Of a stretch of DNA of 64,000 nt, positions 31,765-59,542 are shown piece by piece. The stretch comes from a virus, in the IMG/VR virus record IMGVR_UViG_3300042445_001170, positions 32,001-96,000 of that record. One strand, 5' to 3'. Position numbers and translations under genes: made by a program. The number at the start of each line of letters is the position of its first letter. Positions within the stretch are counted from its first letter, which is position 1. The notes beneath the pieces are model-generated. The model was not told the origin of the DNA and searched no databases. It was given only the letters and a program-made list of their open reading frames with translations.

Positions 31765-32126
31765 TTTTTTATAACACCTTCATCTTGAACCCATTTTTCA
31801 TTTGGATCGTTTCTTATAAAATATTGCAATACATCGTTTGTAATGCAAGCATGACAACTGCACTTATCGCTATGCGAACCAATATGTGGAATTATTCTAG
31901 ATAGCACATCCTTGATTAAAATTTCAGAAGTATATTCATGAAAATTAGTATCCATTCTTCCAGCAAGTACAAATTTTAATGCAGAAATATAACCATCTAA
32001 ATAATGCCATTCTGCTATTTGAGAATCTTCAAGCGGCATGTGATCAAGATAATTCATCTCCATATTTTTTTTATTTTCAATTGCTTTTAATAATTGATCT
32101 TCTATAAAATACTTTGTACTTGTCAT
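31758..32126 (-). CDS. hypothetical protein
   Basis: ATGA coupling to dnaE; H...C.C..C. Confidence 0.65.
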   Translation of the reverse strand: MTSTKYFIEDQLLKAIENKKNMEMNYLDHMPLEDSQIAEWHYLDGYISALKFVLAGRMDTNFHEYTSEILIKDVLSRIIPHIGSHSDKCSCHACITNDVLQYFIRNDPNEKWVQDEGVIKKW

Positions 32127-45864: not shown

Positions 45865-48800
45865 TTATCCAGTATAAATCGACCTGCATTTTACTGAGGT
45901 TGATAGCCCATTGTCCCAGGAATGACCTATATCTAATACAACATATTTGCTTGCAGATTTGCCAGATGGAATTGTATCGTCTGAAGCATATACTGAGTTT
46001 AGGGGATATGATATCTCAACCATATCTCCTACTTGAATTAGAGGGTTTGGAAAGCATTGTATATCTATTGATGTCTGTTGTCTAGACCATTGGTCTTTCA
46101 TCCATGTAGATAGCTCTTTTGCTTCCCGCTCTTTTTGTATCCAGGTTGAATCAAATCCAATAATTTCAATATCTTTTAACTTTGCTATTTCTGGGTCTAT
46201 GTATTCAAATGGATCCGTTGCAACTATTTGATCTCCTACTACTTGAAAGCTTCTTGTCTGACCATCGGCAAGTGGAACAAAGGTTCCAGCATTATTTAAA
46301 ACATATGCCTCTATGCCAAAAGAATTTACCGATGATCCAATAAGTGTAACAAATGGATTTAAAGTTATTTGTGCAAATCTTGGCTGGCCTGGTCTTTGTG
46401 CATACTTAGCACTTATATATTTTAGCTCTCTGGCTACTGGACCAAACTCTTTAAAGAAGGTTGGAGATGAAACCTTCGACCCCTTTGTTAAAACAAAGTC
46501 TCCAAAAGATTGAGATAGGTATGACTGTGAACCAAGCATTCCGCTATACGGATTATAAGGTGTAGTAGAAGCAAACTGAGATTCTGAAATTGCATTACTG
46601 TACAGGTAGTCGTAGCTAATTGAGCCCTTCTGTGAAAATAGGCCAACTTTTTCTGTTATAGGCAACACATAGCTAGCGCCGTTGTCTGTGGCTACAATTG
46701 TAGTGTTATCAAATTTAATTTTAAAGGTTCTTCTTGTTGTATCATAATTAACCTTAACGTCTAGGTTATATAGCTGACCACCAGAAACACCAGTTACAGT
46801 TGTTGTGTCTCCCTTTTGAGAATCTGTTATTGCAACTTGATAGGGCTTGGAGCCCTTTTTAAATCTCCACAATCTTATATTCTTGTCAGTCAATTTACCC
46901 GTGGCGGTTGTCTGTTCTGTTTTAATTTCAATGTAGTAACCAGTAGCTCCATTGTCCGATAGGCATATTGCAAGTCCACCTATTACCTGATCTGCGCCAG
47001 TTAATCGTCCAGCAGAGTCTTTCATTAGTGGAAAGTAGAAGCTCGTTCCAACAGAAAAGTTTTTTGTAGTTGAATCTATAAATTTTGCATCTATAGTTGC
47101 AACTGTATAGTTTTTATTTAATGACACGGTGCCTGGCTGTGATACTGTAAGCATAGATCTTGGCACACTTTTGCCAAAGCTATCAGAAGCCTCTATAGAT
47201 ATTTTAGAGTTGTCTATAGAAGGAGTGCCAGTAGACTGTGTGGCCTCTGTTAACAACCTTACCTCAAAGTCATCTTTGTAGTCCGCTATATCTACACTGT
47301 GTGAAGATACGGGAGTGCCGAATGCTCCTCTAGTTTTAATTCTATATTCTCCAGTTGGCTTAAAACTATTTACTTGACCTAGAGCCTGATACTTTTGAAG
47401 GTCTATGTCTGACTCTATCCATTGGCTCTGAGGGGAGCCAGCAAGGTCTGTATACGAATACCTGATTGCATCATACTCTATAACTTCATCATTTAAAACT
47501 AGGTACCCAGTTTTATTTAAAGCTCTTAGATCAAGCCCGTCCATTGTTGTTATTAAATTTATCCACAGAGAGGATCCAGCCAAAGAAGATGCTGCTAAAT
47601 TCTTTACCAATGCGCCTGCTCCAAGAGAATACACTGGTGATTGCCATAGTAGATCAGCACCAGCATTATAAGAAGAACTCATTTGTGGTCTATAAAGAAT
47701 TTTAACTCCCTGCACTGACGGCAAATCTTCTTTAGACATTGATATAATATTTGCTTCTTCTTGAGTAACTCCACTAGAAACAAGCGGGTTGTATCTAAAA
47801 GTAAAAGATTTAGTTTTATTTTTGTTATAAATCCATTCTCTTGTATAGAACTGAAGGATATTATTCTCATCAAATGTAGCTACCATTTGTGTGTCTTTAC
47901 ATAAGTCCTGTATACACTCCCAAACAGTTTTTGTATCGTCTGTATACCAGTAGTACGGAGTTATTGCAGATTTATCATTACCGTCTGGCGATAGGTTAAA
48001 GTTATAATTTGTAAACCCTATCCCATCCAGCAGTCTTTTAATAATAGCAGGTGACGGGGCATCTTTTATCAAAATATCTGGCGCTACTATTTTTTGCAAT
48101 AACAAAGCCTGATCTAGTGCTTGCAAATCAACTTGACCAAATTCATCTACTGTCCAAGAATCTGCATAGAAGTATCCTTGCTGAATCTTTTCAATAGTGT
48201 TGTCTGATTTAGTTATATTGTAGTATGGTTTAAAAAGAACATTGTTATAAAAATATGACTTGGTTTTATCAAAAACAAATGTTTTGTCGTAAGAAATTCC
48301 AGACCTATCTTCAAAAAACAACCTAGCATTTAAAGAATTTGCAGTAACATTTCCTACTGGGGTTAGGCCGTTAGATGAATCAGATGCTTTTTTTTGTGTG
48401 CTAAATGACATTATCTTATCTGACATATCCTTTACATATCTAGCGGATATCTCAATTACACCCAAGTATGTGTCTGATACATTTATTGAATTGATCTCAA
48501 CTACAATAGAGTCTATGTCTACTGGCTCCGTAGGAGATGTTGTCCATTCTGTTGTGGACCAGGTTGTTCCACCCTGATAGTATAGGTTAACAACACCAGT
48601 TGAATCAACGCTACCATTTGTTAAAACAGTTGTTGTTGTTCCGCCTTTTGTAATTTTTACTGTCCACGTTACTGGCTTTACATATGTCATGTCAGACCAG
48701 ACTTTAGAAGTTCCATTGTCTGACACTAGGCTTCTTATTCCGTATGATGTTTCAAACTTAATAGATATCTTATTTGTAACTGTATTCTTGCCAGATGGAT

Positions 48801-49224
48801 AGGAAACTGTTAATTTACAATTTGATAGAGATGTACCGCTTGATTTTGGCGTTACCCAATACTGATACTTATTCTTTGATCCAGCGTAATACATTCTGTA
48901 TGGCTCTTTAATTAGTGTGTTGTACGGCAACAAAGCGTTATAAGTTATACCAGAATTACTTGTACTATTAGATATAAAGTATTTAATTCCAGCAGAAGAT
49001 GGTCTCTTGGGGCTTATAATACTTGCAAGCGGGAATAGCTTTAAAAATGGTTTGTACTCTACGCCAGCAGAGTCTTTTAGCGTTACTGTTTCCCCACCAA
49101 GATTTTCAACAGTCACTCCAGCAATAAGGTCGTTCATGTTATATTCAGCCCACAGCCCTGGTGACATTGATAAAGTTGAAGACTTTTTAATTTGATTTAA
49201 AATGTCTGTTGATGAGCTTAACAT
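45865..49224 (-). CDS. large minor tail / baseplate hub protein
   Basis: 1119 aa after Dit; NP.IQ.GD.V C-terminal motif. Confidence 0.75.
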   Translation of the reverse strand: MLSSSTDILNQIKKSSTLSMSPGLWAEYNMNDLIAGVTVENLGGETVTLKDSAGVEYKPFLKLFPLASIISPKRPSSAGIKYFISNSTSNSGITYNALLPYNTLIKEPYRMYYAGSKNKYQYWVTPKSSGTSLSNCKLTVSYPSGKNTVTNKISIKFETSYGIRSLVSDNGTSKVWSDMTYVKPVTWTVKITKGGTTTTVLTNGSVDSTGVVNLYYQGGTTWSTTEWTTSPTEPVDIDSIVVEINSINVSDTYLGVIEISARYVKDMSDKIMSFSTQKKASDSSNGLTPVGNVTANSLNARLFFEDRSGISYDKTFVFDKTKSYFYNNVLFKPYYNITKSDNTIEKIQQGYFYADSWTVDEFGQVDLQALDQALLLQKIVAPDILIKDAPSPAIIKRLLDGIGFTNYNFNLSPDGNDKSAITPYYWYTDDTKTVWECIQDLCKDTQMVATFDENNILQFYTREWIYNKNKTKSFTFRYNPLVSSGVTQEEANIISMSKEDLPSVQGVKILYRPQMSSSYNAGADLLWQSPVYSLGAGALVKNLAASSLAGSSLWINLITTMDGLDLRALNKTGYLVLNDEVIEYDAIRYSYTDLAGSPQSQWIESDIDLQKYQALGQVNSFKPTGEYRIKTRGAFGTPVSSHSVDIADYKDDFEVRLLTEATQSTGTPSIDNSKISIEASDSFGKSVPRSMLTVSQPGTVSLNKNYTVATIDAKFIDSTTKNFSVGTSFYFPLMKDSAGRLTGADQVIGGLAICLSDNGATGYYIEIKTEQTTATGKLTDKNIRLWRFKKGSKPYQVAITDSQKGDTTTVTGVSGGQLYNLDVKVNYDTTRRTFKIKFDNTTIVATDNGASYVLPITEKVGLFSQKGSISYDYLYSNAISESQFASTTPYNPYSGMLGSQSYLSQSFGDFVLTKGSKVSSPTFFKEFGPVARELKYISAKYAQRPGQPRFAQITLNPFVTLIGSSVNSFGIEAYVLNNAGTFVPLADGQTRSFQVVGDQIVATDPFEYIDPEIAKLKDIEIIGFDSTWIQKEREAKELSTWMKDQWSRQQTSIDIQCFPNPLIQVGDMVEISYPLNSVYASDDTIPSGKSASKYVVLDIGHSWDNGLSTSVKCRSIYTG

Positions 49225-49685
49225 TATACTTGTTCCAGTGTTAGGCTAACATCCCAAAATTCTTGTGGATCTACTCCGCTTACCATTTTGACATTTCTTT
49301 TATTTAGGCTAAAGCTGCAATTGGTAAACATGACTGTTATTATTTCATCTCTTGCTGAGACTCCGTTGTAAGATATTTTTAATTTAAATGAGCCTATTCC
49401 TTTTGCTTTATAGAATGCTCTAATTTGTTCTGCGCCGTAGCCGCCATCGACAGTCATTGTGCTTGTTGAAGGCAATGTATTCCATGAGCACTGAATAGAA
49501 TACTTATCCGCAATAAATATTTTACGCATAGTTCCATTAGCCATACGCTCTGCTCTTTCAATTCTATTTGTATCTAAGGATACTGGCTGCCTATTGTGCT
49601 CGGACAGCTTAGTCCAGGTAGGGGTAGTTGCATCTGTTCCAGTGTCAATAAACAGTAGTGATCCTACAGGTAAAGTTAGCGCCAT
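49224..49685 (-). CDS. distal tail (Dit-like) protein
   Basis: Follows tape measure; RMANGTMR. Confidence 0.7.
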   Translation of the reverse strand: MALTLPVGSLLFIDTGTDATTPTWTKLSEHNRQPVSLDTNRIERAERMANGTMRKIFIADKYSIQCSWNTLPSTSTMTVDGGYGAEQIRAFYKAKGIGSFKLKISYNGVSARDEIITVMFTNCSFSLNKRNVKMVSGVDPQEFWDVSLTLEQV

Positions 49686-52600
49686 TATGTCCTCTTTGTT
49701 CCTACCATTTTAGCATTAAGCTTTGCATCTTGTCCAATAGCTTGCTTTGTCATTGTTACAACCTGTCTTACAAACGATTCCGTATTCATTCCATCAGATG
49801 GATAAATGTTTTGTGTTAAATTAATTGTGCTTCCTGATCCAACATTGAATGCCGCTGCTTGGAAATTAGACTGTGGAACAGAATACTGCATGTTGTTAAT
49901 TCTTTCAAGAAGTGGAAGTATTCCTGGTTGTCTTACAGCTTGGGCGTTTACAACAAACTCTCCATTTGAAACATATGCTCCAGAAGCATACTTGCCTTTT
50001 GGCATCATTGGCATATAAATAGAATCAGATGTACCAGTTCCTGGTCCAGAAAGTAGACCGCCATCTTTATAGGACTTAACCCTTCCACTCTGATCTCCCA
50101 TGGCTGCAAGCCATGAACCAATTATTTTTCCATCTTGCATTACCATTCCATTAGAAGTATAAGTAGTGTCACCCTGTAGCCAGGAAGATTTATGAGCCTT
50201 ATAAAATGCTCTCATTGCTGCATCTCTGCTTGCGAACTCTTTACCGCTTAGCTTAGAATCTGGGATTATATATGACTGGGTCTGGGACGGAGATCCTACT
50301 GGCATAGATTCATATTCTTTTTTAGTGACCTTCTTGCCAGACTGTGTAAAGTATTGGATAGGGTCTCCAGTTGCTCCTGTACCAGTTTTCTTTCCAGCAA
50401 TTTTTCCAGGATCTGCCAGTGTTGCTGTCTTTGAGCCAGCGTTACCAAGATCTATTTTCTTGCCATTAATAATTACATCACCGTTTACAACAATTCCTTG
50501 TTCTTTTAGCGATGCCTCAAGGCCAGATGATACTGAATCGAATAGAGCCTGCCCTGCAGCAATTCCAACATTTCCATCTTTATCTTTTGGAAGCCCAGAC
50601 ATATCTACCTTTGCATCTGTCGCTGCTTGAGTAATTGCTGCAAGCATTCCCTTAGCTTCATCTGTTGTCTTCCACTTCTTAAGGTCATCCTTATGAATCT
50701 CAATGGCCAGTCTATATGTAGTCATGGCTTTATTTAAGGCTTCAATTTTACCTTCATTAGTTTCAATTTCTTTAGTTACGTCGCCAAGCTTTTCTCCTGC
50801 GTATGCAGCTGCATCGCCAAGATCTTGCTGCTTTTTAGCCATGGCTTCTGCCGCTTTTTTAAGAGGGGCATTTGCTTTTTCTGTTGCTGCGTCGATGGCC
50901 TTAATCTGTGCGTCATACTGCTGTGTAGCAACCAGGCCTTCAAGATCAAGTCTTGCTTGCTGTGCACCAGCTGTGTTTCCAGTAGCCTCTGCATTTTGAA
51001 GCTCAAGTTTTTTAGCCTCAATTGCTCTTCCAGAATCTTGCTCATTCTTTTTATCCTGGAGTGCTTTCTTTCTTGCATCCGCTAATTTATTGTTGGCATC
51101 AATTTGCTTGTTAATTGCAGCAAGTCTATCTCTATCAGATATTTGTTGTGCTACTGACTGTCCCTTTAATGCCTTTTGATATTTTTCTTGCAATCCCTTA
51201 AGTTTATCTAATGCAACATATTGCGCCTTTAGTATTCCGCCTCTGTTTGTTGTTTCAACGCCCTTTGCAACGGCGCTTTGCAAAGCATACAGAGCATTTG
51301 TTTGTGCAGCAGAAAGTCCAGATAGATCTCCAATAAATCCTCTTGCTTCAATTCTAGTTTTTTTCCAAAGAGTTAGCGCAGTATCTTGCTCAGAGGCAAT
51401 CTTTCTTAATGCAGGATTTTGTTTTTCCATTTCATCAAGTGTTTCTTTGCTAAGTCTTTTCTGTCCTTCTAGCTTACTTGAGATCTGATCTAGTGCCTGT
51501 TTTTCTGCATCCCATTTAATCTTATCTGACTCGGCTGTACTAATAAATGAAGGCTTGCTCTTATCTTTTTTACGTGCCTTCATTGCATCAGACTCTTTAT
51601 CTGCAATTGCAGTATCAATTCCCATTGCTGCAGTGTTAAGAGCATTTGCTTGTTCAGTTGGGTCTAAATCTTTTCTAACTGCATCGCTGTACGTGTTAAG
51701 TGCTTCACGGGCTGCATCAACAGAAGTTTTAATATTCATAAAGGCTTTAGATGAAGTTGTAAAAGCTGATGTGTTATTTGATTGATTGGAGGCTTTATAC
51801 ATTGCATAAATTTTTGCTGTGGCGTCCTCTGCAGACATACCCATAGCCATAAGTTGCTCTTTTAATCTTATAGCAAGGTCTGCCTGATCATCATAGCTTG
51901 TCTTATTGATAAGCGCTATCTGATCTTTATATACAGAATTAACTTCTTTCTTTAATTTTTTGTATTGCTCTATAGTTAATTTTAGTGGCGTTCCAGATGT
52001 AGTCATGCTCTCATACATCATTTGATTTCTTTCTTTAACAGCTTGAGCATCCGCTACAGTTTCTTTTAATTTTTTATTAAAGTCGGTAAATCTAAGCCCA
52101 GCCTTCTTTGCTGCCTCCGCTGTCATTCCATAGCCTAGTGCATTTAATCTCATGCTTTCTTGATGATTTTTCCATAGTTTAATTCCAAGAGTTACCGCTG
52201 TAACAGCTCCGAAAGCGATTAGATTAAATCTAGTCATTGCAAGTCCAAGCTTTCCAATAACTGCCTGGAACTTCTTGCCGCTGGTTGCCATCTCTGTTAT
52301 TGCAGTTCCATACTTAGTTAGGCCACCAGTTTTTCCAGATATAACTCCTACTGGTGTCGTCATCGATGCAGGAACTTTTGACATTAGCTTGCCCTTACCT
52401 CCGCCGCCCATCATCGCAGCAGATTGCATCATCATGGGTAGCATAAAGCCAACTTGTTGAATTATCATAGATATGATTGGGTTTGCAACCTTGCTAGCAA
52501 TAAATTGTGCTCCTGCTGCGACTGCCATACCTCCAGCAATCTGTCCGCCAATTCCGTATTTATTATTTGGAACTATGCCACCAGAAACTCTAGGAACAAA

Positions 52601-55600
52601 AAGTTCAGGTCCTTTTTCTCCAACAATATAGGCCTGTCCTCCATTAACTGGGCCGCCCTTTTCTCTTCCCTCTAGACCAAATATGATCTTCTTTAAAGAT
52701 TCTGTAAGCGGGGTATCTTTTTTAGATTCCCAGTTTAAATACTTTTGTCTTAAAATATCTTTATCTATTGGCGATAGTTGTTTTAATACAGACCTATCTC
52801 CAATCAAATCTGATGCGGCTGATCTTACTACTGCGTCTAAAACGTCTGGTTCCAGTGCATTCTTTAAAGATCCTTTTGCATCCTTGACATATCCATAAGG
52901 CTTTTCTTTAGCAAGAGCTGCTGCAAATTTATCATAGAATAATTTTTGAGTATGCTTTCTTAATCCAGTATTTGCAAATAAGGTGTTAGCCATTTCAATA
53001 GATAATGAGTTTACGCCCCATGGCGCTGACTCATACATGCTTGGCTTTGGTGCACCTGTTGGTCCAAAGCCTGCACCGATTCTATGCATTGCTTTGCCTT
53101 TTAATACATTACCAATCATTCCGCCAATAGCAAATCCATTTGCTGAGGATTTAAATCCAGCATCCGATAGGCTAACAATATGTCCAGACTGTCTTCTCTT
53201 TAGTTCTTCTGCTGCTGCAATCTTAGCAAGTGCCGCTGGTGTAAGGTTAGTTTCTTTTGAAGGAACTACTGCAGAGTGTACTCCGTGAAGTTCTCTCCAC
53301 TTTACATCTCTTGCATCTTCAAGTCTTTTAATCATTTTTGCATAGACAACTTTTTCTTGCTGATTTAGATCAAAGCTTCCAATAGTTTTTTTCAGTCTTG
53401 GCAAAGTTGCTTCAATTTCTTCAAGCATTCTTGAATTATAAGCGTCTGGGGTCATACCCTTTGGAATGTCCATTGTAGACTCAGCAAAAAACTTCTTTGC
53501 TCCGCTTCCCTTAATTCCAAGCAAATTAACCATTGCCTGATCTCCAACTGAAGGCATGAATCCAGCATAATCTCTTAAGCCAGATGCTGTTGAGAATACT
53601 CCAGCAGTTCCTACATCTGATAATACATTTCCAGATAAGTTTCCTCTGCCTAAATCTTTATCTCCACGAAGAGATGACGCAAGAAGCTGTCTAAAATACT
53701 CATCTGTAGTAAATTTACCATCTTGCACAGTAAGGGCTTTATCGAATGGTGATTCGAGAACTAGTAGCTTTCTCAATCCCTTTGGATCGGTTGGATCACG
53801 CATTACATTAAGAGTTTGTTTTGGAGCCTTTAGTCCATGTGCTTCACGAGCAATTTGTGTTGCTCTCATTTCAGCAAGTGCTGCCTTTTCATCAAGCATT
53901 GGTTTAACAAAAACCTTTTCGCCGTTTCTTGTATATACGCCACCAATACCAGGAACTGGGAAGCTTCTTCCAGATGTTGGCTCTAGCAAATCTCCATATT
54001 CTGTTACTGGATGCTTTGCAAATCTAGAATCTTTAACTGCAATGTCTGCCTTTTCCATTGCTGCTTTCATTGCTCTTTGTTGTTCTACCTGCTTAATTGT
54101 TTTAGGCATACCAAGGAACATTGCTTTTCCTCCGCCAAATAATCTTTGTGCAAACTGTCCTGGAATTTCTCCGCCTGAATTTGCTGCAATTTCCTTTGTT
54201 AGCGGAAGAGCTCTGCCTCTTGTAAGGAGAAGTCTCATCATCTGAGTAATCATGTGACCTCTTTGAATTACAGGCATTCTCTTAATAAGGTTTTGTGCAT
54301 TTCCATACTTAAGCTCTTTTGCTAATAGATCTGCAGTTTCTCTTGCAGCGTTACCAGTCAATGGGACTCTGTCTACAAATTTACCCTGCGTCATAGAAGC
54401 CAGCCAGTTTGTAAAGTTATTAACCTTACTGCTTCCAGCCATAGCTAAGTATGCGTTTCCTCTTGTTCTGTTACTCTTTATGTTTCCATTCTCTTCAGTA
54501 AAGAAATTTCTATCTTGATCTAGGTGCTCTGATGCGTAGTCAAGCTTTCCATTTGCTGTAAATGTATTCATCACTCTCTGTAGAGAAACTTGGTCTATAT
54601 CTGCTCTAGCCATCAGCGCAGCAACTAGGCTTCTAGTTGGTTGAATTCTTGCATTAGCAGATGGTCTTCCTCCAGGCTTTAGCTCTTCGGCTTTGTCCTG
54701 CCATAATAGGTCTTTGTATTTTGCTTTTGAAGTTGACCCATCTTTATTTACTACTGTTCGCCCCATGCCTTGCATGTCAATATACTCTTGCATACGTCTG
54801 GACTGTTGTATTCTAAATCTATTAAAAGCTTTTCTATCTACCTGACCAGTTTTTGGATCTTTAGTTCTTTGCATAGCTTCTTCAAAATCTCTTTTTGCCA
54901 TAGAGACTGCTTCGTCTTCACTAAATCCTAAATGATTTAATACTGCTGCATCGTGTAATATGACTCTATTTTTTAAAGATGCGTCATAGCTAGGATCTGA
55001 ATTTCTTGTTAGCCAGCCCTTTAATCCAGTAAATAAGTTTTCTGAAAGCCCTCCTCCAAGATTTCTTCCAAGGCCAGATGTATTTCCAGGCCCACCATTT
55101 AATGCATGCATTAGTGGCATATTGTCCTGTGCAATATCTGCTGGAATGACTGCTTCGCCAGGTGTTAGAACTACTGGTACTTGCCCTCCATCTGCAAATG
55201 CTGGGGTTCCGCCAAGAAGATTGCTTATGATTGGCATATTTTCTTGTGTTGATTTTTTATTAATTACAAATGATCCAGCCTCAGCTGTTGTATGGTATGT
55301 ATCGCTATTTCCTGTTCCAGGGACTATTCCGCCATCTGCAAACTTAGGTTTTGTTGTTTGAATATTATATCCTGCGCCCGATGTTCTAACTCCACCAAGT
55401 GCTCTTGCAATCTTGTCAACAATATCTTTTGTTGTTCCTTTATGGAACATTTCCTTCATGTTTGATTTTCCAGTTAAAGGATCTACAACTGGTTGTGACG
55501 TCAATGGGACTGTAGTTAGATTTGCAACTCTTCCCATACCAGCTGCAGTTGCTGCTGCAGTTTCGGCAAGCATTGCCTCTACTGTCGCATTCATCTGCAT

Positions 55601-58045
55601 AACTTTTGCTCTCGCTTGATCTACAGTTATCTTGCTAGCCTGCAGCTGTGCAACTATTGCTTCTGTTTCGGCAGCAGCTAATTGTGTTATTTCAGAAAAT
55701 TGTGGTAGTAATGCTTGATAAGAATCTGCTAGGCTTGATGTAACTGTGCCAGTTGCCATTACTTCTGCCTTTAATATCTTTATTTCTGCTTCGGACTGCA
55801 TCGCTATTGCTGCTGTCATTGCATGCCATTTTGCTGCCTCTTGTGCAACGATACCAGTTGAAGTTCCGTTAACAGATGTAACTCCTGGAATCTTTGGCAT
55901 ATCTTGATTCATGTATGCTTGTGGATTTTTTCCAATTCTTACATTTACTGGACCAGCTCCAGGAACTGTTCCAAATATTGTTCCCATCTGCTGGCTCTGT
56001 GCTGGTATAAGGTGGGACATATCTCTTGAATATGGTGCTCCAATTAATGGATTATCTTTATCTACAATTCGTTGTCCTGCTCCGCCTGCAGCAATTACTC
56101 CACCTGCAATTGTTGATATAGCTGGCTGAACTGCAACTTTTGCTGCATTCGCTTTTAGCTCAAGGTTATTAAAAGACTGTGTTAATGTATTTACTGCATT
56201 TGATAAAACAATTGTTGCTTCTGAGTCTGAATAGAACGAAGTTGCTAATCCTTTTGCTGCTGCTTCTGCAGCCATGATTTCTGGGGTAAGTAGCTTGAAT
56301 CCTTGGCCACCTTTAGCAAGTTGTCTTAAATGGAATATACCCTTTACAACATATCCAATAAAGTTGCCCATCACACCAGCCATCATAATAAGAGGACCAG
56401 CAATTGCTGTTAGGCCTCCTAATGCATTCAAGAATGTTTTAACTGGGCCTGGAAGGTGCTGGAAGAACTTGATGATTGAATCTACAACTTTTAATACTTG
56501 TGTGCTTATTCTTAAGAACTGCTCACCTGTTTGTGCTAAATCTGCCTGTACTGATGCCCATGCTCTTTTAAATTGTCCAGATGCTGACTCTGTCATCATC
56601 TTTAATTCTCGCTCAGATATCTGTGCAAGATCTACTGCGCTTGCCTTCATTAAGTCCATGACTTGAAGTGTCTGCGATCCTTGCTTTCCTAGGTTTTCAA
56701 ATAGTGCAGACATTCTTGCAAACTGGAACTTACCAAATAGCTGCTCAATTGCTCTTGACTTATCTAATGGGTTTAGTTTGTCTAGCGCTGCCTGCAACGC
56801 CATAATAGTTCCTGTTAAGTCACCAGCGTTACTATTTACAATACCCTTTAAATCGATTCCAAATCCTGCAAACTGCTCGGTTGCAACTTTAGTTGGGTTA
56901 ATAAGAGAAGCCATTGCTGACTTAATTGCGTTAGCGCCTTCAGCAGCATTTACTCCACCTTCTTTCATGGCAGTAAGGTAAAGTGCTAAATCTTTTACAT
57001 CTCCGCCAAGCGATTTAATTACTGGTCCTGCTTTAGGGATTGCTTCAGTTAAATCTGCAAGGCTTGTTGATGTCTGGTTTTCAACTGCGTTGAGGAAGTC
57101 GATTGACTGTGTAAGCTCTTCTGTATTTTGCTTAAATGCATTTTGAATAGCAAGCGTTGCTTTCATAGCATCTTGTCTATCTACTTCACCAAGAACTGCA
57201 AGTCTTGTTGTTTGCTGGGTAGCTTGAATTAAATCATTTCCCTGCTGACCAGTTGCTGCAAGGTCAGCTGCTAATGCAATTGTTTCTTTGTATGCAACTC
57301 CGTATGAGCTAGCAATCTCTTTTGCTGTAGCCTTTACGTCTTTTCTAACCTGAGCTAAGTCTGCTGAAGATGTCGCTGCAAGACCGCCATAAACTTTTGT
57401 AAGTCTTACTAGCTCTGCATCTGCTTCTCTAAATGCTTTTTGTGCAGCCATTCCAAATGCTGCAAGAGGTACAGTTAAACCAACAGTTAACTGACGACCA
57501 GCCCACTGTGTATTCTTACCCCAGTTAATAAGCTGATTAGATCCATCAAGCATAACCTTGTTCATGATTGCTGCTTCTTGGCGAGCAAGTGCCATCTTGT
57601 TCTTTACTTCATCTAAGCCTTTTGCAACCATTACGTTGTACTGCATTAGGCCTTGTGCATTTTTACCAACTGGCTGAACTATTGCTTGCTGAAGCATTAC
57701 TTGCTGCTTTGCAAGATCTCTAATTAAGTTGCTAGTTTTCTTTGTGTGGCCGTTCCAAGCATTATAGTAATCGTTGAGCTTTAAACGGCCTCTATCTAAG
57801 TTCTTGCCGAACTTGTCTACGTCTGAAGATAGTGATACAAAGTGTGAAGAGAACTGGCCAGTTGAACGCATCGTTTCTGCAAACGACTTGTTCATCACTG
57901 CAATTTGATTTGCAAGCTTGGCGTTAGTTCCCGCTGTTGTTTCTTGTAATTTTACGAGTTGGGCAGTAACCGCAGCTAGTTGAGTTCTTAAACTCGTGAA
58001 GTCTGCGTGGGCGGTAATATTGGTCGTGATTAAATTATCTGCCAT
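49685..58045 (-). CDS. tape measure protein (2786 aa) with internal cargo domains
   Basis: TP901-type core in N-terminal third; position after tail chaperones; internal kinase-like domain. Confidence 0.92.
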   Translation of the reverse strand: MADNLITTNITAHADFTSLRTQLAAVTAQLVKLQETTAGTNAKLANQIAVMNKSFAETMRSTGQFSSHFVSLSSDVDKFGKNLDRGRLKLNDYYNAWNGHTKKTSNLIRDLAKQQVMLQQAIVQPVGKNAQGLMQYNVMVAKGLDEVKNKMALARQEAAIMNKVMLDGSNQLINWGKNTQWAGRQLTVGLTVPLAAFGMAAQKAFREADAELVRLTKVYGGLAATSSADLAQVRKDVKATAKEIASSYGVAYKETIALAADLAATGQQGNDLIQATQQTTRLAVLGEVDRQDAMKATLAIQNAFKQNTEELTQSIDFLNAVENQTSTSLADLTEAIPKAGPVIKSLGGDVKDLALYLTAMKEGGVNAAEGANAIKSAMASLINPTKVATEQFAGFGIDLKGIVNSNAGDLTGTIMALQAALDKLNPLDKSRAIEQLFGKFQFARMSALFENLGKQGSQTLQVMDLMKASAVDLAQISERELKMMTESASGQFKRAWASVQADLAQTGEQFLRISTQVLKVVDSIIKFFQHLPGPVKTFLNALGGLTAIAGPLIMMAGVMGNFIGYVVKGIFHLRQLAKGGQGFKLLTPEIMAAEAAAKGLATSFYSDSEATIVLSNAVNTLTQSFNNLELKANAAKVAVQPAISTIAGGVIAAGGAGQRIVDKDNPLIGAPYSRDMSHLIPAQSQQMGTIFGTVPGAGPVNVRIGKNPQAYMNQDMPKIPGVTSVNGTSTGIVAQEAAKWHAMTAAIAMQSEAEIKILKAEVMATGTVTSSLADSYQALLPQFSEITQLAAAETEAIVAQLQASKITVDQARAKVMQMNATVEAMLAETAAATAAGMGRVANLTTVPLTSQPVVDPLTGKSNMKEMFHKGTTKDIVDKIARALGGVRTSGAGYNIQTTKPKFADGGIVPGTGNSDTYHTTAEAGSFVINKKSTQENMPIISNLLGGTPAFADGGQVPVVLTPGEAVIPADIAQDNMPLMHALNGGPGNTSGLGRNLGGGLSENLFTGLKGWLTRNSDPSYDASLKNRVILHDAAVLNHLGFSEDEAVSMAKRDFEEAMQRTKDPKTGQVDRKAFNRFRIQQSRRMQEYIDMQGMGRTVVNKDGSTSKAKYKDLLWQDKAEELKPGGRPSANARIQPTRSLVAALMARADIDQVSLQRVMNTFTANGKLDYASEHLDQDRNFFTEENGNIKSNRTRGNAYLAMAGSSKVNNFTNWLASMTQGKFVDRVPLTGNAARETADLLAKELKYGNAQNLIKRMPVIQRGHMITQMMRLLLTRGRALPLTKEIAANSGGEIPGQFAQRLFGGGKAMFLGMPKTIKQVEQQRAMKAAMEKADIAVKDSRFAKHPVTEYGDLLEPTSGRSFPVPGIGGVYTRNGEKVFVKPMLDEKAALAEMRATQIAREAHGLKAPKQTLNVMRDPTDPKGLRKLLVLESPFDKALTVQDGKFTTDEYFRQLLASSLRGDKDLGRGNLSGNVLSDVGTAGVFSTASGLRDYAGFMPSVGDQAMVNLLGIKGSGAKKFFAESTMDIPKGMTPDAYNSRMLEEIEATLPRLKKTIGSFDLNQQEKVVYAKMIKRLEDARDVKWRELHGVHSAVVPSKETNLTPAALAKIAAAEELKRRQSGHIVSLSDAGFKSSANGFAIGGMIGNVLKGKAMHRIGAGFGPTGAPKPSMYESAPWGVNSLSIEMANTLFANTGLRKHTQKLFYDKFAAALAKEKPYGYVKDAKGSLKNALEPDVLDAVVRSAASDLIGDRSVLKQLSPIDKDILRQKYLNWESKKDTPLTESLKKIIFGLEGREKGGPVNGGQAYIVGEKGPELFVPRVSGGIVPNNKYGIGGQIAGGMAVAAGAQFIASKVANPIISMIIQQVGFMLPMMMQSAAMMGGGGKGKLMSKVPASMTTPVGVISGKTGGLTKYGTAITEMATSGKKFQAVIGKLGLAMTRFNLIAFGAVTAVTLGIKLWKNHQESMRLNALGYGMTAEAAKKAGLRFTDFNKKLKETVADAQAVKERNQMMYESMTTSGTPLKLTIEQYKKLKKEVNSVYKDQIALINKTSYDDQADLAIRLKEQLMAMGMSAEDATAKIYAMYKASNQSNNTSAFTTSSKAFMNIKTSVDAAREALNTYSDAVRKDLDPTEQANALNTAAMGIDTAIADKESDAMKARKKDKSKPSFISTAESDKIKWDAEKQALDQISSKLEGQKRLSKETLDEMEKQNPALRKIASEQDTALTLWKKTRIEARGFIGDLSGLSAAQTNALYALQSAVAKGVETTNRGGILKAQYVALDKLKGLQEKYQKALKGQSVAQQISDRDRLAAINKQIDANNKLADARKKALQDKKNEQDSGRAIEAKKLELQNAEATGNTAGAQQARLDLEGLVATQQYDAQIKAIDAATEKANAPLKKAAEAMAKKQQDLGDAAAYAGEKLGDVTKEIETNEGKIEALNKAMTTYRLAIEIHKDDLKKWKTTDEAKGMLAAITQAATDAKVDMSGLPKDKDGNVGIAAGQALFDSVSSGLEASLKEQGIVVNGDVIINGKKIDLGNAGSKTATLADPGKIAGKKTGTGATGDPIQYFTQSGKKVTKKEYESMPVGSPSQTQSYIIPDSKLSGKEFASRDAAMRAFYKAHKSSWLQGDTTYTSNGMVMQDGKIIGSWLAAMGDQSGRVKSYKDGGLLSGPGTGTSDSIYMPMMPKGKYASGAYVSNGEFVVNAQAVRQPGILPLLERINNMQYSVPQSNFQAAAFNVGSGSTINLTQNIYPSDGMNTESFVRQVVTMTKQAIGQDAKLNAKMVGTKRT

Positions 58046-58054
58046 ATACTTATA

Positions 58055-58719
58055 TTACTCTATTCGGTATCCTAATCCTGCTCCGACGCCAAAACCAGCT
58101 TCGCTGGCAAAAGATCCTTGTAATGAAACAACATCATCTGCTGCTGCATTTATACCAAGCGCTCTTCTTCTAACATCTTCGAAGGAGGAACCCTCCTCAT
58201 TTTCATTACTGCTTTCATTTAAATCTACTCCCTGAATTGAAGCTAAGAATCTTCTTTTCTCCGATTCAGTCTTTTGCATTGATTTAAAAGTCTGGATTAA
58301 CTCTGGCATTGAAAGATTATCTTCTAATTGTTCGTAATTTATCCAATTACCAAGAAGAAAAACTTCCCCTTCTAAAGCGGCTAGATCTAGTTCTGACCAG
58401 CCAGTACTGCTGCCGCTAGTAGGTTTGGGTCGTCCATCTTAATTCCTCCGCAAACTTCTAGAATGCGATTGATAGTTGGAACGTCAAGTGTGTCTTCAAA
58501 TGCGTCTTTATCTGCTACTAGGTCTGGGAGTTGCTTTTGTAGTGCCACTCCGCATGCCTCAATAAGAATTGTCAATGTCTCATCTTCTGATGTTACTTCT
58601 TGTGTTCTCTGAATGACTTTCATAAACTCACGAAGCTCTTTAATTGTTAAAGGCTTGAGTTTAACTGTTGCGCCATTTTGTAGTTGAATTTCTTCAACAT
58701 CATATACTGTAGTTGCCAA
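58055..58719 (-). CDS. tail assembly chaperone G (58387-58719) and -1 frameshift product GT (to 58055)
   Basis: Slippery C CCA AAC at 58429-58423; -1 frame open (PTSGSSTGWSELDL...) into 58055..58309. Confidence 0.82.
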
Positions 58720-58828: not shown

Positions 58829-59542
58829 TTAGGCTGTCTTGTTAAGAACACGGTCTACGATGAAACCATATTCCTGACCTGACTTTGAGCCGTCTGGAAG
58901 CAAACGGAATGTAACTGGGAATGTTGATGCTGCGTTACGAGCCAAAGAGAACTGTGACTGTTGTACAGAAAGAACACGACGTGCATAGTATACACGCTCT
59001 GCCTTTGATACACCTGCTCCAGAAGTTGGAGCCTGACCTACTGCAACAAGCTGACGCTCTGTTGGAGCCTCGCCGAGAGCACCACCAGCAAGACCAAGCT
59101 TGTCTACTGTTGCTCCTTCTGTGAGTGTGCTTGAGCTCTGGCCGAATACTGTAAGAACATTCTCTAGAGTACCTTCTGCCATTTCTGTAGCGATCATAAC
59201 TTCCATTGACTCCTTGAAAAGCTTTGCTGTATCAAGAAGCTGATCTACTGTAACTGAACCGTATGAAGGGTTGTATGTTACCTGAAGACCATTGTTTGTG
59301 TAACCAACGTTTCTGTAATAGAATGCTGGTGTAGTTGTGCTAGTTACCTCATTCAAGGTATCTGTGTAAGACTTTCCGTCTGCTGATGCTGTTGGTGCTG
59401 AAAATGCTGGTGCTGTTGAACCAACTTCTCCAGGTGCAAAATTCTCGACGTATCCTGATGTTGTAACGTCTAAGTTTGTGATAAATAGTGGTGAAGCACC
59501 AACTAGAATATTCTTAGCATTACCTGCAATTTGATTTGCCAT
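58829..59542 (-). CDS. major tail protein
   Basis: VGYT..G, VDQ, E.TLEN; strong AGGAGG SD. Confidence 0.85.
   Translation of the reverse strand: MANQIAGNAKNILVGASPLFITNLDVTTSGYVENFAPGEVGSTAPAFSAPTASADGKSYTDTLNEVTSTTTPAFYYRNVGYTNNGLQVTYNPSYGSVTVDQLLDTAKLFKESMEVMIATEMAEGTLENVLTVFGQSSSTLTEGATVDKLGLAGGALGEAPTERQLVAVGQAPTSGAGVSKAERVYYARRVLSVQQSQFSLARNAASTFPVTFRLLPDGSKSGQEYGFIVDRVLNKTA

Follow-up and report, generated by a model that had tools for sequence, protein, structure and literature searches.

In a 64,000-nucleotide stretch of viral DNA (positions 32,001 to 96,000 of IMG/VR record IMGVR_UViG_3300042445_001170; the whole stretch is called the window below), we found a gene for a tape measure protein (TMP) whose product carries, in its middle, a predicted protein-kinase-like domain with an intact catalytic set, next to a slot in which unrelated cassettes have been exchanged among relatives. 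TMPs are usually regarded as rulers and channel formers, and to our knowledge the only enzymes embedded in them are cell-wall hydrolases. We favour, with a probability of about 0.6, the reading that this is a cargo-carrying ('polyvalent') TMP, in which recombination exchanges cassettes at joints and from which the cargo would be delivered to the host.

The gene is a single open reading frame (ORF) of 2786 amino acids (aa) on the minus strand of a genome of 112,167 bases that CheckV rates as complete. Its product is the TMP of an uncultured freshwater siphophage with a 112-kb genome. The Pfam model PF10145 matched aa 239-438 with an E-value of 3e-26, above the Pfam cut-off, and PHROG TMP families covered aa 20-850 (phrog_10030 TMP, E 3.6e-117). 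More than 100 relatives of 2650-2790 aa in metagenomes are likewise single ORFs, and near-identical TMP DNA was found in lake, estuary, plankton and freshwater metagenomes from at least 8 studies. The gene also lies in the position of a TMP within a tail module, with the upstream neighbours and the downstream tail genes all on the same strand.

An earlier note on this DNA had described the segment at window 52540-55345 as a series of blocks punctuated by GG motifs. The segment corresponds to aa 901-1835, where both the motifs and folded blocks are present. All of the named motifs were located: FADGG at aa 902 and 950, RNLGG at 994, ANSGG at 1288, RLFGG at 1301, FAIGG at 1638, REKGG at 1794, YGIGG at 1830 and YKDGG at 2659. 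AlphaFold2 models built with family alignments showed folded domains, as expected if the blocks are globular and not ruler helices. At the level of these models, it is confirmed that aa 900-1840 consist of three folded blocks on disordered Gly-rich linkers, not of a ruler coiled coil; the linkers were of low confidence throughout. The block sizes given earlier (about 290, 330 and 155 aa) hold approximately, except that in block 3 only some 100 aa are folded. A strongly conserved stretch with predicted disorder makes up the remainder of its ~155-aa interval.

The evidence for a kinase comes from block 2. Its model had predicted local distance difference test (pLDDT) scores of 84-97 (aa ~1317-1605), and the top 50 Foldseek and top 50 VIA-align matches were kinases in every case. 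Matches included CotH (5jda; Z 11.9, root-mean-square deviation (rmsd) 3.8, 217 residues aligned), CtkA (Z 9.8, rmsd 4.6, 199 residues), MavQ (Z 9.6, rmsd 4.3, 219 residues), PI4KII-alpha (Z 9.4, rmsd 4.8, 217 residues) and HipA (Z 9.4, rmsd 4.2, 192 residues). We then read the catalytic positions from 134 kinase-domain sequences clustered at 50% identity. The beta-3 Lys (K1381), the alpha-C Glu (E1392) and the catalytic-loop Asp (D1464) were each conserved at 0.99, and the catalytic-loop Asn (N1469) and the DFG-type Asp (D1477) at 1.00. These residues fall within the expected elements of the model (strand 81-88, helix 91-106 and the loop after helix 152-165). Together, the models and the alignment indicate that block 2 has a bilobal protein-kinase-like fold with an intact catalytic set, and it would apparently be an active atypical kinase.

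Block 2 falls outside the HipA, CotH and PI4K families, and the likeness is at the fold level only. Searches of its sequence against Pfam, NCBIfam and the PDB, with single sequences and with profiles and at E-values up to 1-10, gave no match. CotH, HipA/CtkA and PI4K type II kinases share the fold, with Z of 9.4-11.9 over 192-217 aligned residues, but their identity to block 2 is 10-14%, no profile matched, and block 2 occurs only inside giant TMPs. When 1.84 billion representatives were searched exhaustively, only 166 relatives of the kinase domain emerged. Nearly all of the proteins that carry it are 2000-4468 aa long, the position of the domain within them varies, and the TMP Pfam domain was detected in 6/6 scanned kinase-bearing relatives. 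The kinase-fold family is restricted to TMPs. One of these six TMPs also has a Peptidase_M23 domain and another has CHAP plus LysM, indicating that wall hydrolases and the kinase can share one TMP. P0259 (aa 2198-2291) and P0141 (aa 2674-2869) are distant kinase-bearing TMPs of ~4000-4500 aa with Peptidase_M23 or CHAP plus LysM. In a full-text literature search we found no description of a kinase inside a TMP; a match to Microcystis phage MinS1 was set aside because it concerns an unrelated small ORF. When aa 900-1840 were compared by tblastn with 50,697 deposited phage genomes, a collection from which records close to the window may be missing, the GExGPE module described below was matched alone, with no kinase and no block 1.

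Next to the kinase, the sequence of the TMP changes abruptly among relatives. Mean identity to 27 full-length relatives is 80-95% over aa 1-1000, 21-39% over aa 1001-1280 and 64-97% over aa 1281-1840; the N-terminal core (aa 1-880) is itself at 80-95%. We found that the slot of block 1 can be filled by another cassette of 219, ~236 or ~290 aa between flanks that are 92-94% identical. Profile-profile comparison resolved three mutually unrelated families in this slot: cassette types A and D are related (probability 97.8%), and B and C each scored below 1% to everything else. Block 2 is also absent in some relatives. L060 and L062 are cleanly without the kinase, with a junction that reads NSGGEIPGYVGGG/AIGNVLKG (the slash marks the joint), and L049 is kinase-less as well. 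In L050-L059, ~250 other residues stand in place of blocks 1 and 2, and block 3 is kept at 73-75% identity. The prediction that blocks swap while their flanks stay was thus borne out for blocks 1 and 2, which are replaced or drop out, but not for block 3, which does not swap. As for the proposal that the blocks are effectors, one of them looks like an enzyme of kinase fold, but no block could be matched to any known family of toxins or effectors.

The breakpoints of these exchanges fall on the named motifs: at aa 899/900 (before FADGG), 999 (RNLGGG), 1289-1299 (NSGG-EIPG), 1306 (RLFGGG) and 1637 (FAIGG). In linker 1 the pattern GPGNT.G..GG is invariant (alignments A2 and A3), and in linker 2 the pattern N.GG.(I/V)PG.FA is kept behind every cassette type. 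Linker 3 is the junction used by the kinase-less and the L050-type variants. A comparison with the relative L008 revealed two of these boundaries at the DNA level, with nucleotide identity of 0.97-1.0 up to aa 899, 0.4-0.8 over aa 900-1299 and 0.98 after that. Synonymous divergence (dS) from L008 was 0.12 over aa 1-880, 1.15 over aa 881-999, 1.43 over aa 1000-1289 and 0.18 over aa 1290-1640. Recombination, through the exchange of alleles and cassettes, accounts for the variation. Positive selection in situ on block 1 was considered and rejected, since synonymous divergence climbs together with non-synonymous divergence.

The domain that occupies the slot in this TMP was modelled as a compact alpha+beta fold (predicted template modelling score (pTM) 0.79) with both junctions at pLDDT <50. 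It had no fold match in Foldseek against the PDB (best E 1.3) or BFVD (best E 0.19) or in VIA-align (best Z 4.4), and no usable match in the ESM Atlas. Nor was a homologue found among free-standing proteins of 159-508 aa in a search that relies on shared short words. Nine residues (R1014, R1027, D1032, E1173, H1174, N1197, N1209, T1212 and D1225) are invariant in block 1 over versions that are only ~30% identical, suggesting that these polar positions mark a putative active or binding site. Between relatives with the same cassette type, the ratio of non-synonymous to synonymous divergence (dN/dS) of block 1 was 0.03-0.22, which indicates that it is a working protein domain under purifying selection. 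Its fast turnover fits a conflict-type function.

These data also bear on the possibility that the middle region is tolerated filler that adds ruler length, its GG motifs being chance occurrences or flexible spacers. TMP length is known to set tail length, as in lambda and TM4, and plain GG is not enriched in this TMP (28 observed against ~22 expected). However, the domains are confidently folded, polar residues are invariant, dN/dS is 0.01-0.22 outside the segments exchanged for a divergent allele, and the modules are significant repeats. The filler reading is already contradicted, and we regard it as extremely improbable.

The real repeat is a module of ~55 aa with the consensus KFAxGGvvsvPGtGtsDtvPAmLSPGEfVIPa...yaPLLdaINsGklPGFakGG. 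A profile of this FAxGG...GE(A/F)V module built from other TMPs found it three times in this protein, with independent E-values of the order of 1e-9 to 4e-11 against a best of 0.13 in 200 shuffles; the profile was built partly from relatives of this TMP, so these three matches are partly circular. The match to lambda gpH is independent of that circularity. In gpH the profile finds a single copy (aa 720-785, E 5.6e-6), with the sequence FATGG...GEFV at aa 732-760 directly after the Gly-rich region, and copy 3 of our TMP stands at the same position as this module. The earlier statement that such a module lies near the processed C-terminus of gpH-type TMPs holds, because the gpH module adjoins the Gly-rich region in which the cut has been placed (PMC12617516). 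In distant TMPs the kinase comes directly after the module and often has a second copy behind it, suggesting that the module brackets cargo.

T5 pb2 gave no significant match to the FAxGG profile and shares only the GExGxE module. The corresponding GExGPE module, which follows block 3 in our TMP, is common to TMPs of Roseobacter, cyanobacterial, Ralstonia and Vibrio phages. In one relative with a 3001-aa TMP (L061), block 3 is kept, the GExGPE module is absent and ~330 other residues precede the hydrophobic region. This observation indicates that the GExGPE module is also dispensable or replaceable.

Block 3 behaves differently from its neighbours, in that its identity stays at 73-75% even where its flanks are at 42-63%. 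It had no family match in Pfam, NCBIfam or the ESM Atlas. An assignment to LPD38 was dropped, since Pfam gives no support on this TMP; the ESM Atlas leads were all below 0.9, with one cluster at 49% LPD38. Pfam, PHROGs and NCBIfam matched only the TMP core and the GExGPE module, and nothing in any block or alternative cassette. Just before block 3, aa 1641-1680 have 97% mean identity, the highest of the whole protein, yet a pLDDT below 40. This stretch, taken as aa 1637-1686, may be a binding or processing element.

The conservation of block 3 and aa 1641-1680, which adjoin the hydrophobic segments, would also be expected if the blocks were built-in tail or penetration parts, that is, a kinase-like pseudoenzyme and scaffolds that stay tethered, have no host target and would assist in assembling the tail, docking at its tip or forming the channel. 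In keeping with this, the domains are found only in TMPs, and the module also occurs in lambda gpH, the C-terminal fragment of which docks in the tail tip (PMC12617516). However, a full K-E-D-N-D set at 99-100% would be needless for a scaffold. Moreover, the replacement of block 1 by unrelated cassettes and the dispensability of the kinase are the pattern of accessory or conflict genes, not of core machinery. We consider such a built-in role improbable.

In the cargo-carrying TMP that we favour, the two ends would do the work of a tail protein: the N-terminal part would serve assembly and the ruler function, and the C-terminal part would contribute hydrophobic segments, a coiled coil and the lambda-like module. 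The centre would hold the fast-turnover orphan domain, the atypical kinase and the conserved helical domain on Gly-rich linkers. The linkers and the FAxGG...GE(A/F)V repeats would be the joints at which cassettes are exchanged, inserted and deleted in frame. By analogy with the TMPs of lambda and T5, the protein would leave the tail ahead of the DNA, so the cargo would most likely arrive in the host envelope or cytoplasm at the very start of infection and act there. Since a kinase needs adenosine triphosphate (ATP), the cytoplasm is indicated. It has been reported that gpH* of lambda forms a trans-envelope channel (PMC12617516), and T5 pb2C has been proposed to be released into the periplasm (PMC10038345); embedded TMP domains should thus reach the host before the DNA. 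Processing at R/EKGG beside GExGPE, as in T5, is possible, and delivery of the cargo would not require it.

Several points weigh against this reading. The kinase assignment combines a predicted fold with motifs and has no sequence family matches, and blocks 1 and 3 match no known fold or function. By our own estimate, a folded 35-kDa kinase (~4 x 4.5 x 6.5 nm) in three to six copies would be a poor fit in a lumen of ~4 nm, so stacking or partial unfolding of the cargo within the tail is probable. The domains could also serve tail assembly or channel formation instead of acting on host targets.

The earlier note had gone further and proposed a polyprotein, cut at several sites to deliver its blocks as effectors. 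In this model the cuts would be made at GG joints, either while the tail matures or once the protein has been ejected, and would free each block. Part of this idea found a counterpart in T5. Its pb2 is cut after R1127, at R/AEGG (PMC10038345), within VPR/AEGGMMYPGVSYQMGEHGTEVVTP, and the GExGPE-module profile aligned pb2 1127-1160 with aa 1794-1827 of our TMP (R/EKGGPVNGGQAYIVGEKGPELFVP), thereby placing R1127/AEGG on R1794/EKGG. This alignment had an E-value of 2.9e-4 against a best of 3.4 in 300 shuffles. The cut that converts gpH to gpH* likewise lies in a Gly-rich region, just before the module copy (PMC12617516). Furthermore, our TMP has R-x-x-GG at aa 881, 994, 1301, 1794 and 1819, five copies where 0.83 would be expected (P 0.0018). 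They all fall within aa 881-1823, at or beside linkers or modules, and most are kept in 28 close relatives. The linkers are predicted to be disordered, hence accessible to cutting.

Other results do not favour release of the blocks. Only a single cleavage site is known to have been mapped in any TMP so far, and a need for release is not known for the embedded TMP enzymes of other phages. In 126 distant kinase-bearing TMPs, R-x-x-GG was enriched 1.8-fold, equal to the reversed control GG..R, and the junction before the kinase in distant TMPs is without it; as a general cleavage motif it was therefore rejected and kept as a lead only. In the same 126 proteins, [FY]..GG was enriched 3.2-fold. The Pfam models of C39 (PF03412) and C48 (PF02902) peptidases, the two GG-cutting families covered, found nothing in the 112-kb genome, and Pfam and NCBIfam recognised no protease domain in the TMP. 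Cleavage of T5 pb2 is reported to involve the host.

With both sides considered, a single T5-like cut near aa 1794 is conceivable, if somewhat doubtful, and release of each block by several cuts is unlikely. We judge the polyprotein as a whole to be unlikely too. Its strongest form, in which cuts after the Arg of R-x-x-GG, as at the T5 pb2 site, free an active kinase and the rapidly exchanged orphan effector into the cytoplasm ahead of the DNA and make the TMP a polymorphic injection vehicle in a family of freshwater siphophages, seems rather unlikely. If it were true, host defences would be disarmed or the cell taken over by the freed kinase and effector. Such a system would mirror polymorphic toxin delivery on the phage side and provide the first processing rule for TMPs.

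A comparison with known systems places the TMP between several of them. It has the TMP role, Gly-rich regions and hydrophobic segments of lambda gpH and T5 pb2, but is ~3 times longer, with ~840 aa of folded cargo in mid-protein, and has three FAxGG modules and one GExGPE module where those proteins have one module. Its GEKGPE is without the His of the metallopeptidase-type motif GEHGTE of T5. Hydrolase-bearing TMPs, such as T5 pb2 with its C-terminus and the M23/CHAP TMPs, likewise embed a catalytic domain in the ruler that is ejected first, and so does the TMP of mycobacteriophage TM4, with Rpf/M23-type motifs. Unlike in these, the cargo here is a kinase-fold domain with orphan domains, the slot is polymorphic, and a kinase would imply a target that needs ATP.

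Polyvalent proteins are very large, multidomain, thought to be injected with the DNA, equipped with protein-modifying enzymes, kinases among them, and variable in their cassettes (PMC5512222). Our TMP resembles them in its size, its multidomain structure, its putative kinase-type enzyme and its cassette-like variation. What we observed is a single domain of catalytic appearance together with two orphan domains, encoded among late genes; injection of the TMP is presumed. The kinase-bearing examples come mainly from phages and prophages of Bacteroidetes and the Verrucomicrobia-Chlamydia lineage, and the proteins are packaged in the head or linked to MuF or the N4 virion RNA polymerase; TMPs are never mentioned in that paper (PMC5512222). 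The polyvalent-protein kinase was described without a C-terminal subdomain (PMC5512222), whereas the match here extends over ~250 residues and includes the helices after the DFG-like Asp. The LPD/polyvalent Pfam models gave no match to this TMP, with LPD38 only a sub-threshold Atlas lead.

CdiA-CT and Rhs polymorphic toxins exchange cassettes at conserved junction motifs. As in those systems, unrelated cassettes swap here at a short joint, GPGNTSG..GG upstream and N.GG.(I/V)PG.FA downstream. In our TMP, however, the cassettes are internal and not C-terminal, the carrier is a virion ruler protein, and no immunity gene, toxin domain or autoproteolytic junction was identified.

Embedded TMP hydrolases and injected polyvalent proteins with kinases were known already; a kinase-fold domain and a swappable slot are what this TMP would add to them. 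The results describe a widespread group of 166 sequence clusters in which a kinase-fold domain with an apparently intact active site lies inside a TMP, and would carry the concept of injected polyvalent proteins beyond the phage head into the tail lumen. They suggest that some phages may deliver enzymes before any gene expression, which bears on host takeover and counter-defence. The module shared with gpH, the GExGPE module aligned with the T5 site and the candidate R/xxGG rule are handles on the question of TMP cleavage. In addition, the natural pairs of kinase-plus TMPs (about 2786 aa) and kinase-less TMPs (about 2480 aa, L060 type) offer a way to ask whether folded cargo counts toward tail length.

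Table 1. Coordinates of the TMP gene, the features of its product and two neighbouring genes in the window.
Feature	Residues (aa)	Window position	Strand	Basis
TMP gene, 2786 aa (P0001)		49685..58045	minus	Single ORF; PF10145, PHROG TMP
N-terminal TMP core, with hydrophobic segment aa 537-571	1-880	55406..58045	minus	PHROG, Pfam; Kyte-Doolittle
Module copy 1 (KFADGGIVPGTGNSD...GSFVI)	899-956	55178..55351	minus	Profile independent E 3.8e-11; left breakpoint aa 899/900
Module copy 2 (FADGGQVPVVLTPGEAVIP...)	953-991	55073..55189	minus	Profile independent E 9.7e-10
Linker 1, Gly-rich (NGGPGNTSGLGRNLGGG)	984-999	55049..55096	minus	pLDDT <50; unrelated cassettes join at aa 999
Block 1, orphan alpha+beta domain	1000-1288	54182..55048	minus	AlphaFold2 pTM 0.79
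Linker 2 (NSGGEIPGQFAQRLFGGGKAM)	1289-1309	54119..54181	minus	pLDDT <50; right breakpoint aa 1289-1299
Block 2, predicted protein-kinase-like domain	1310-1636	53138..54118	minus	AlphaFold2 model; fold matches; catalytic residues
Linker 3 and most conserved stretch (FAIGG MIGNVLKGKAMHRIGAGFGPTGAPKPSMYESAPWGV)	1637-1686	52988..53137	minus	Identity, pLDDT
Block 3, small helical domain	1687-1784	52694..52987	minus	Helices pLDDT 62-80
GExGPE module (EGR/EKGGPVNGGQAYIVGEKGPELFVPRVSGG)	1785-1836	52538..52693	minus	phrog_30701, phrog_1538
Second hydrophobic segment	1933-1958	52172..52249	minus	Kyte-Doolittle scan
Second variable slot	2533-2652	50090..50449	minus	Mean identity ~20%; replaced in many relatives
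Module copy 3 (YKDGGLLSGPGTGTSDS...NGEFVV)	2653-2721	49883..50089	minus	Profile independent E 2.1e-11
Ig-domain protein (phrog_2175)		58829-59542	same as TMP	Upstream of TMP
Minor tail protein (phrog_10359)		45865-49224	same as TMP	Downstream of TMP, with further tail proteins

The C-terminal part of the TMP thus has a variable slot of its own (Table 1), and in some relatives the C-terminus is extended, for a total TMP length of 3051-3729 aa. Relatives with a variable slot or extension of this kind include P0029, P0056, P0058, P0066 and L042. Two long relatives scanned with Pfam gave no match.

The only match among reference genomes was L106, a 2548-base contig of a metagenome-assembled genome of Bacteroidia that is 87% identical to block 3 and the GExGPE module. 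This points weakly to a Bacteroidia host, consistent with the ~39% G+C, and the contig may be stray phage DNA. Naming a host from it was dropped, a single binned contig of 2.5 kb being too weak.

Among the neighbouring genes, the one for the immunoglobulin (Ig)-domain protein stands where a tail tube gene would be expected. Between it and the TMP gene, a small ORF (phrog_10504) at 58387-58719 occupies the expected place of a tail chaperone gene. Over window 1-64000, nearly all ORFs of at least 150 aa are on the minus strand and the GC skew is negative throughout, so that the window resembles one long co-directional gene block.

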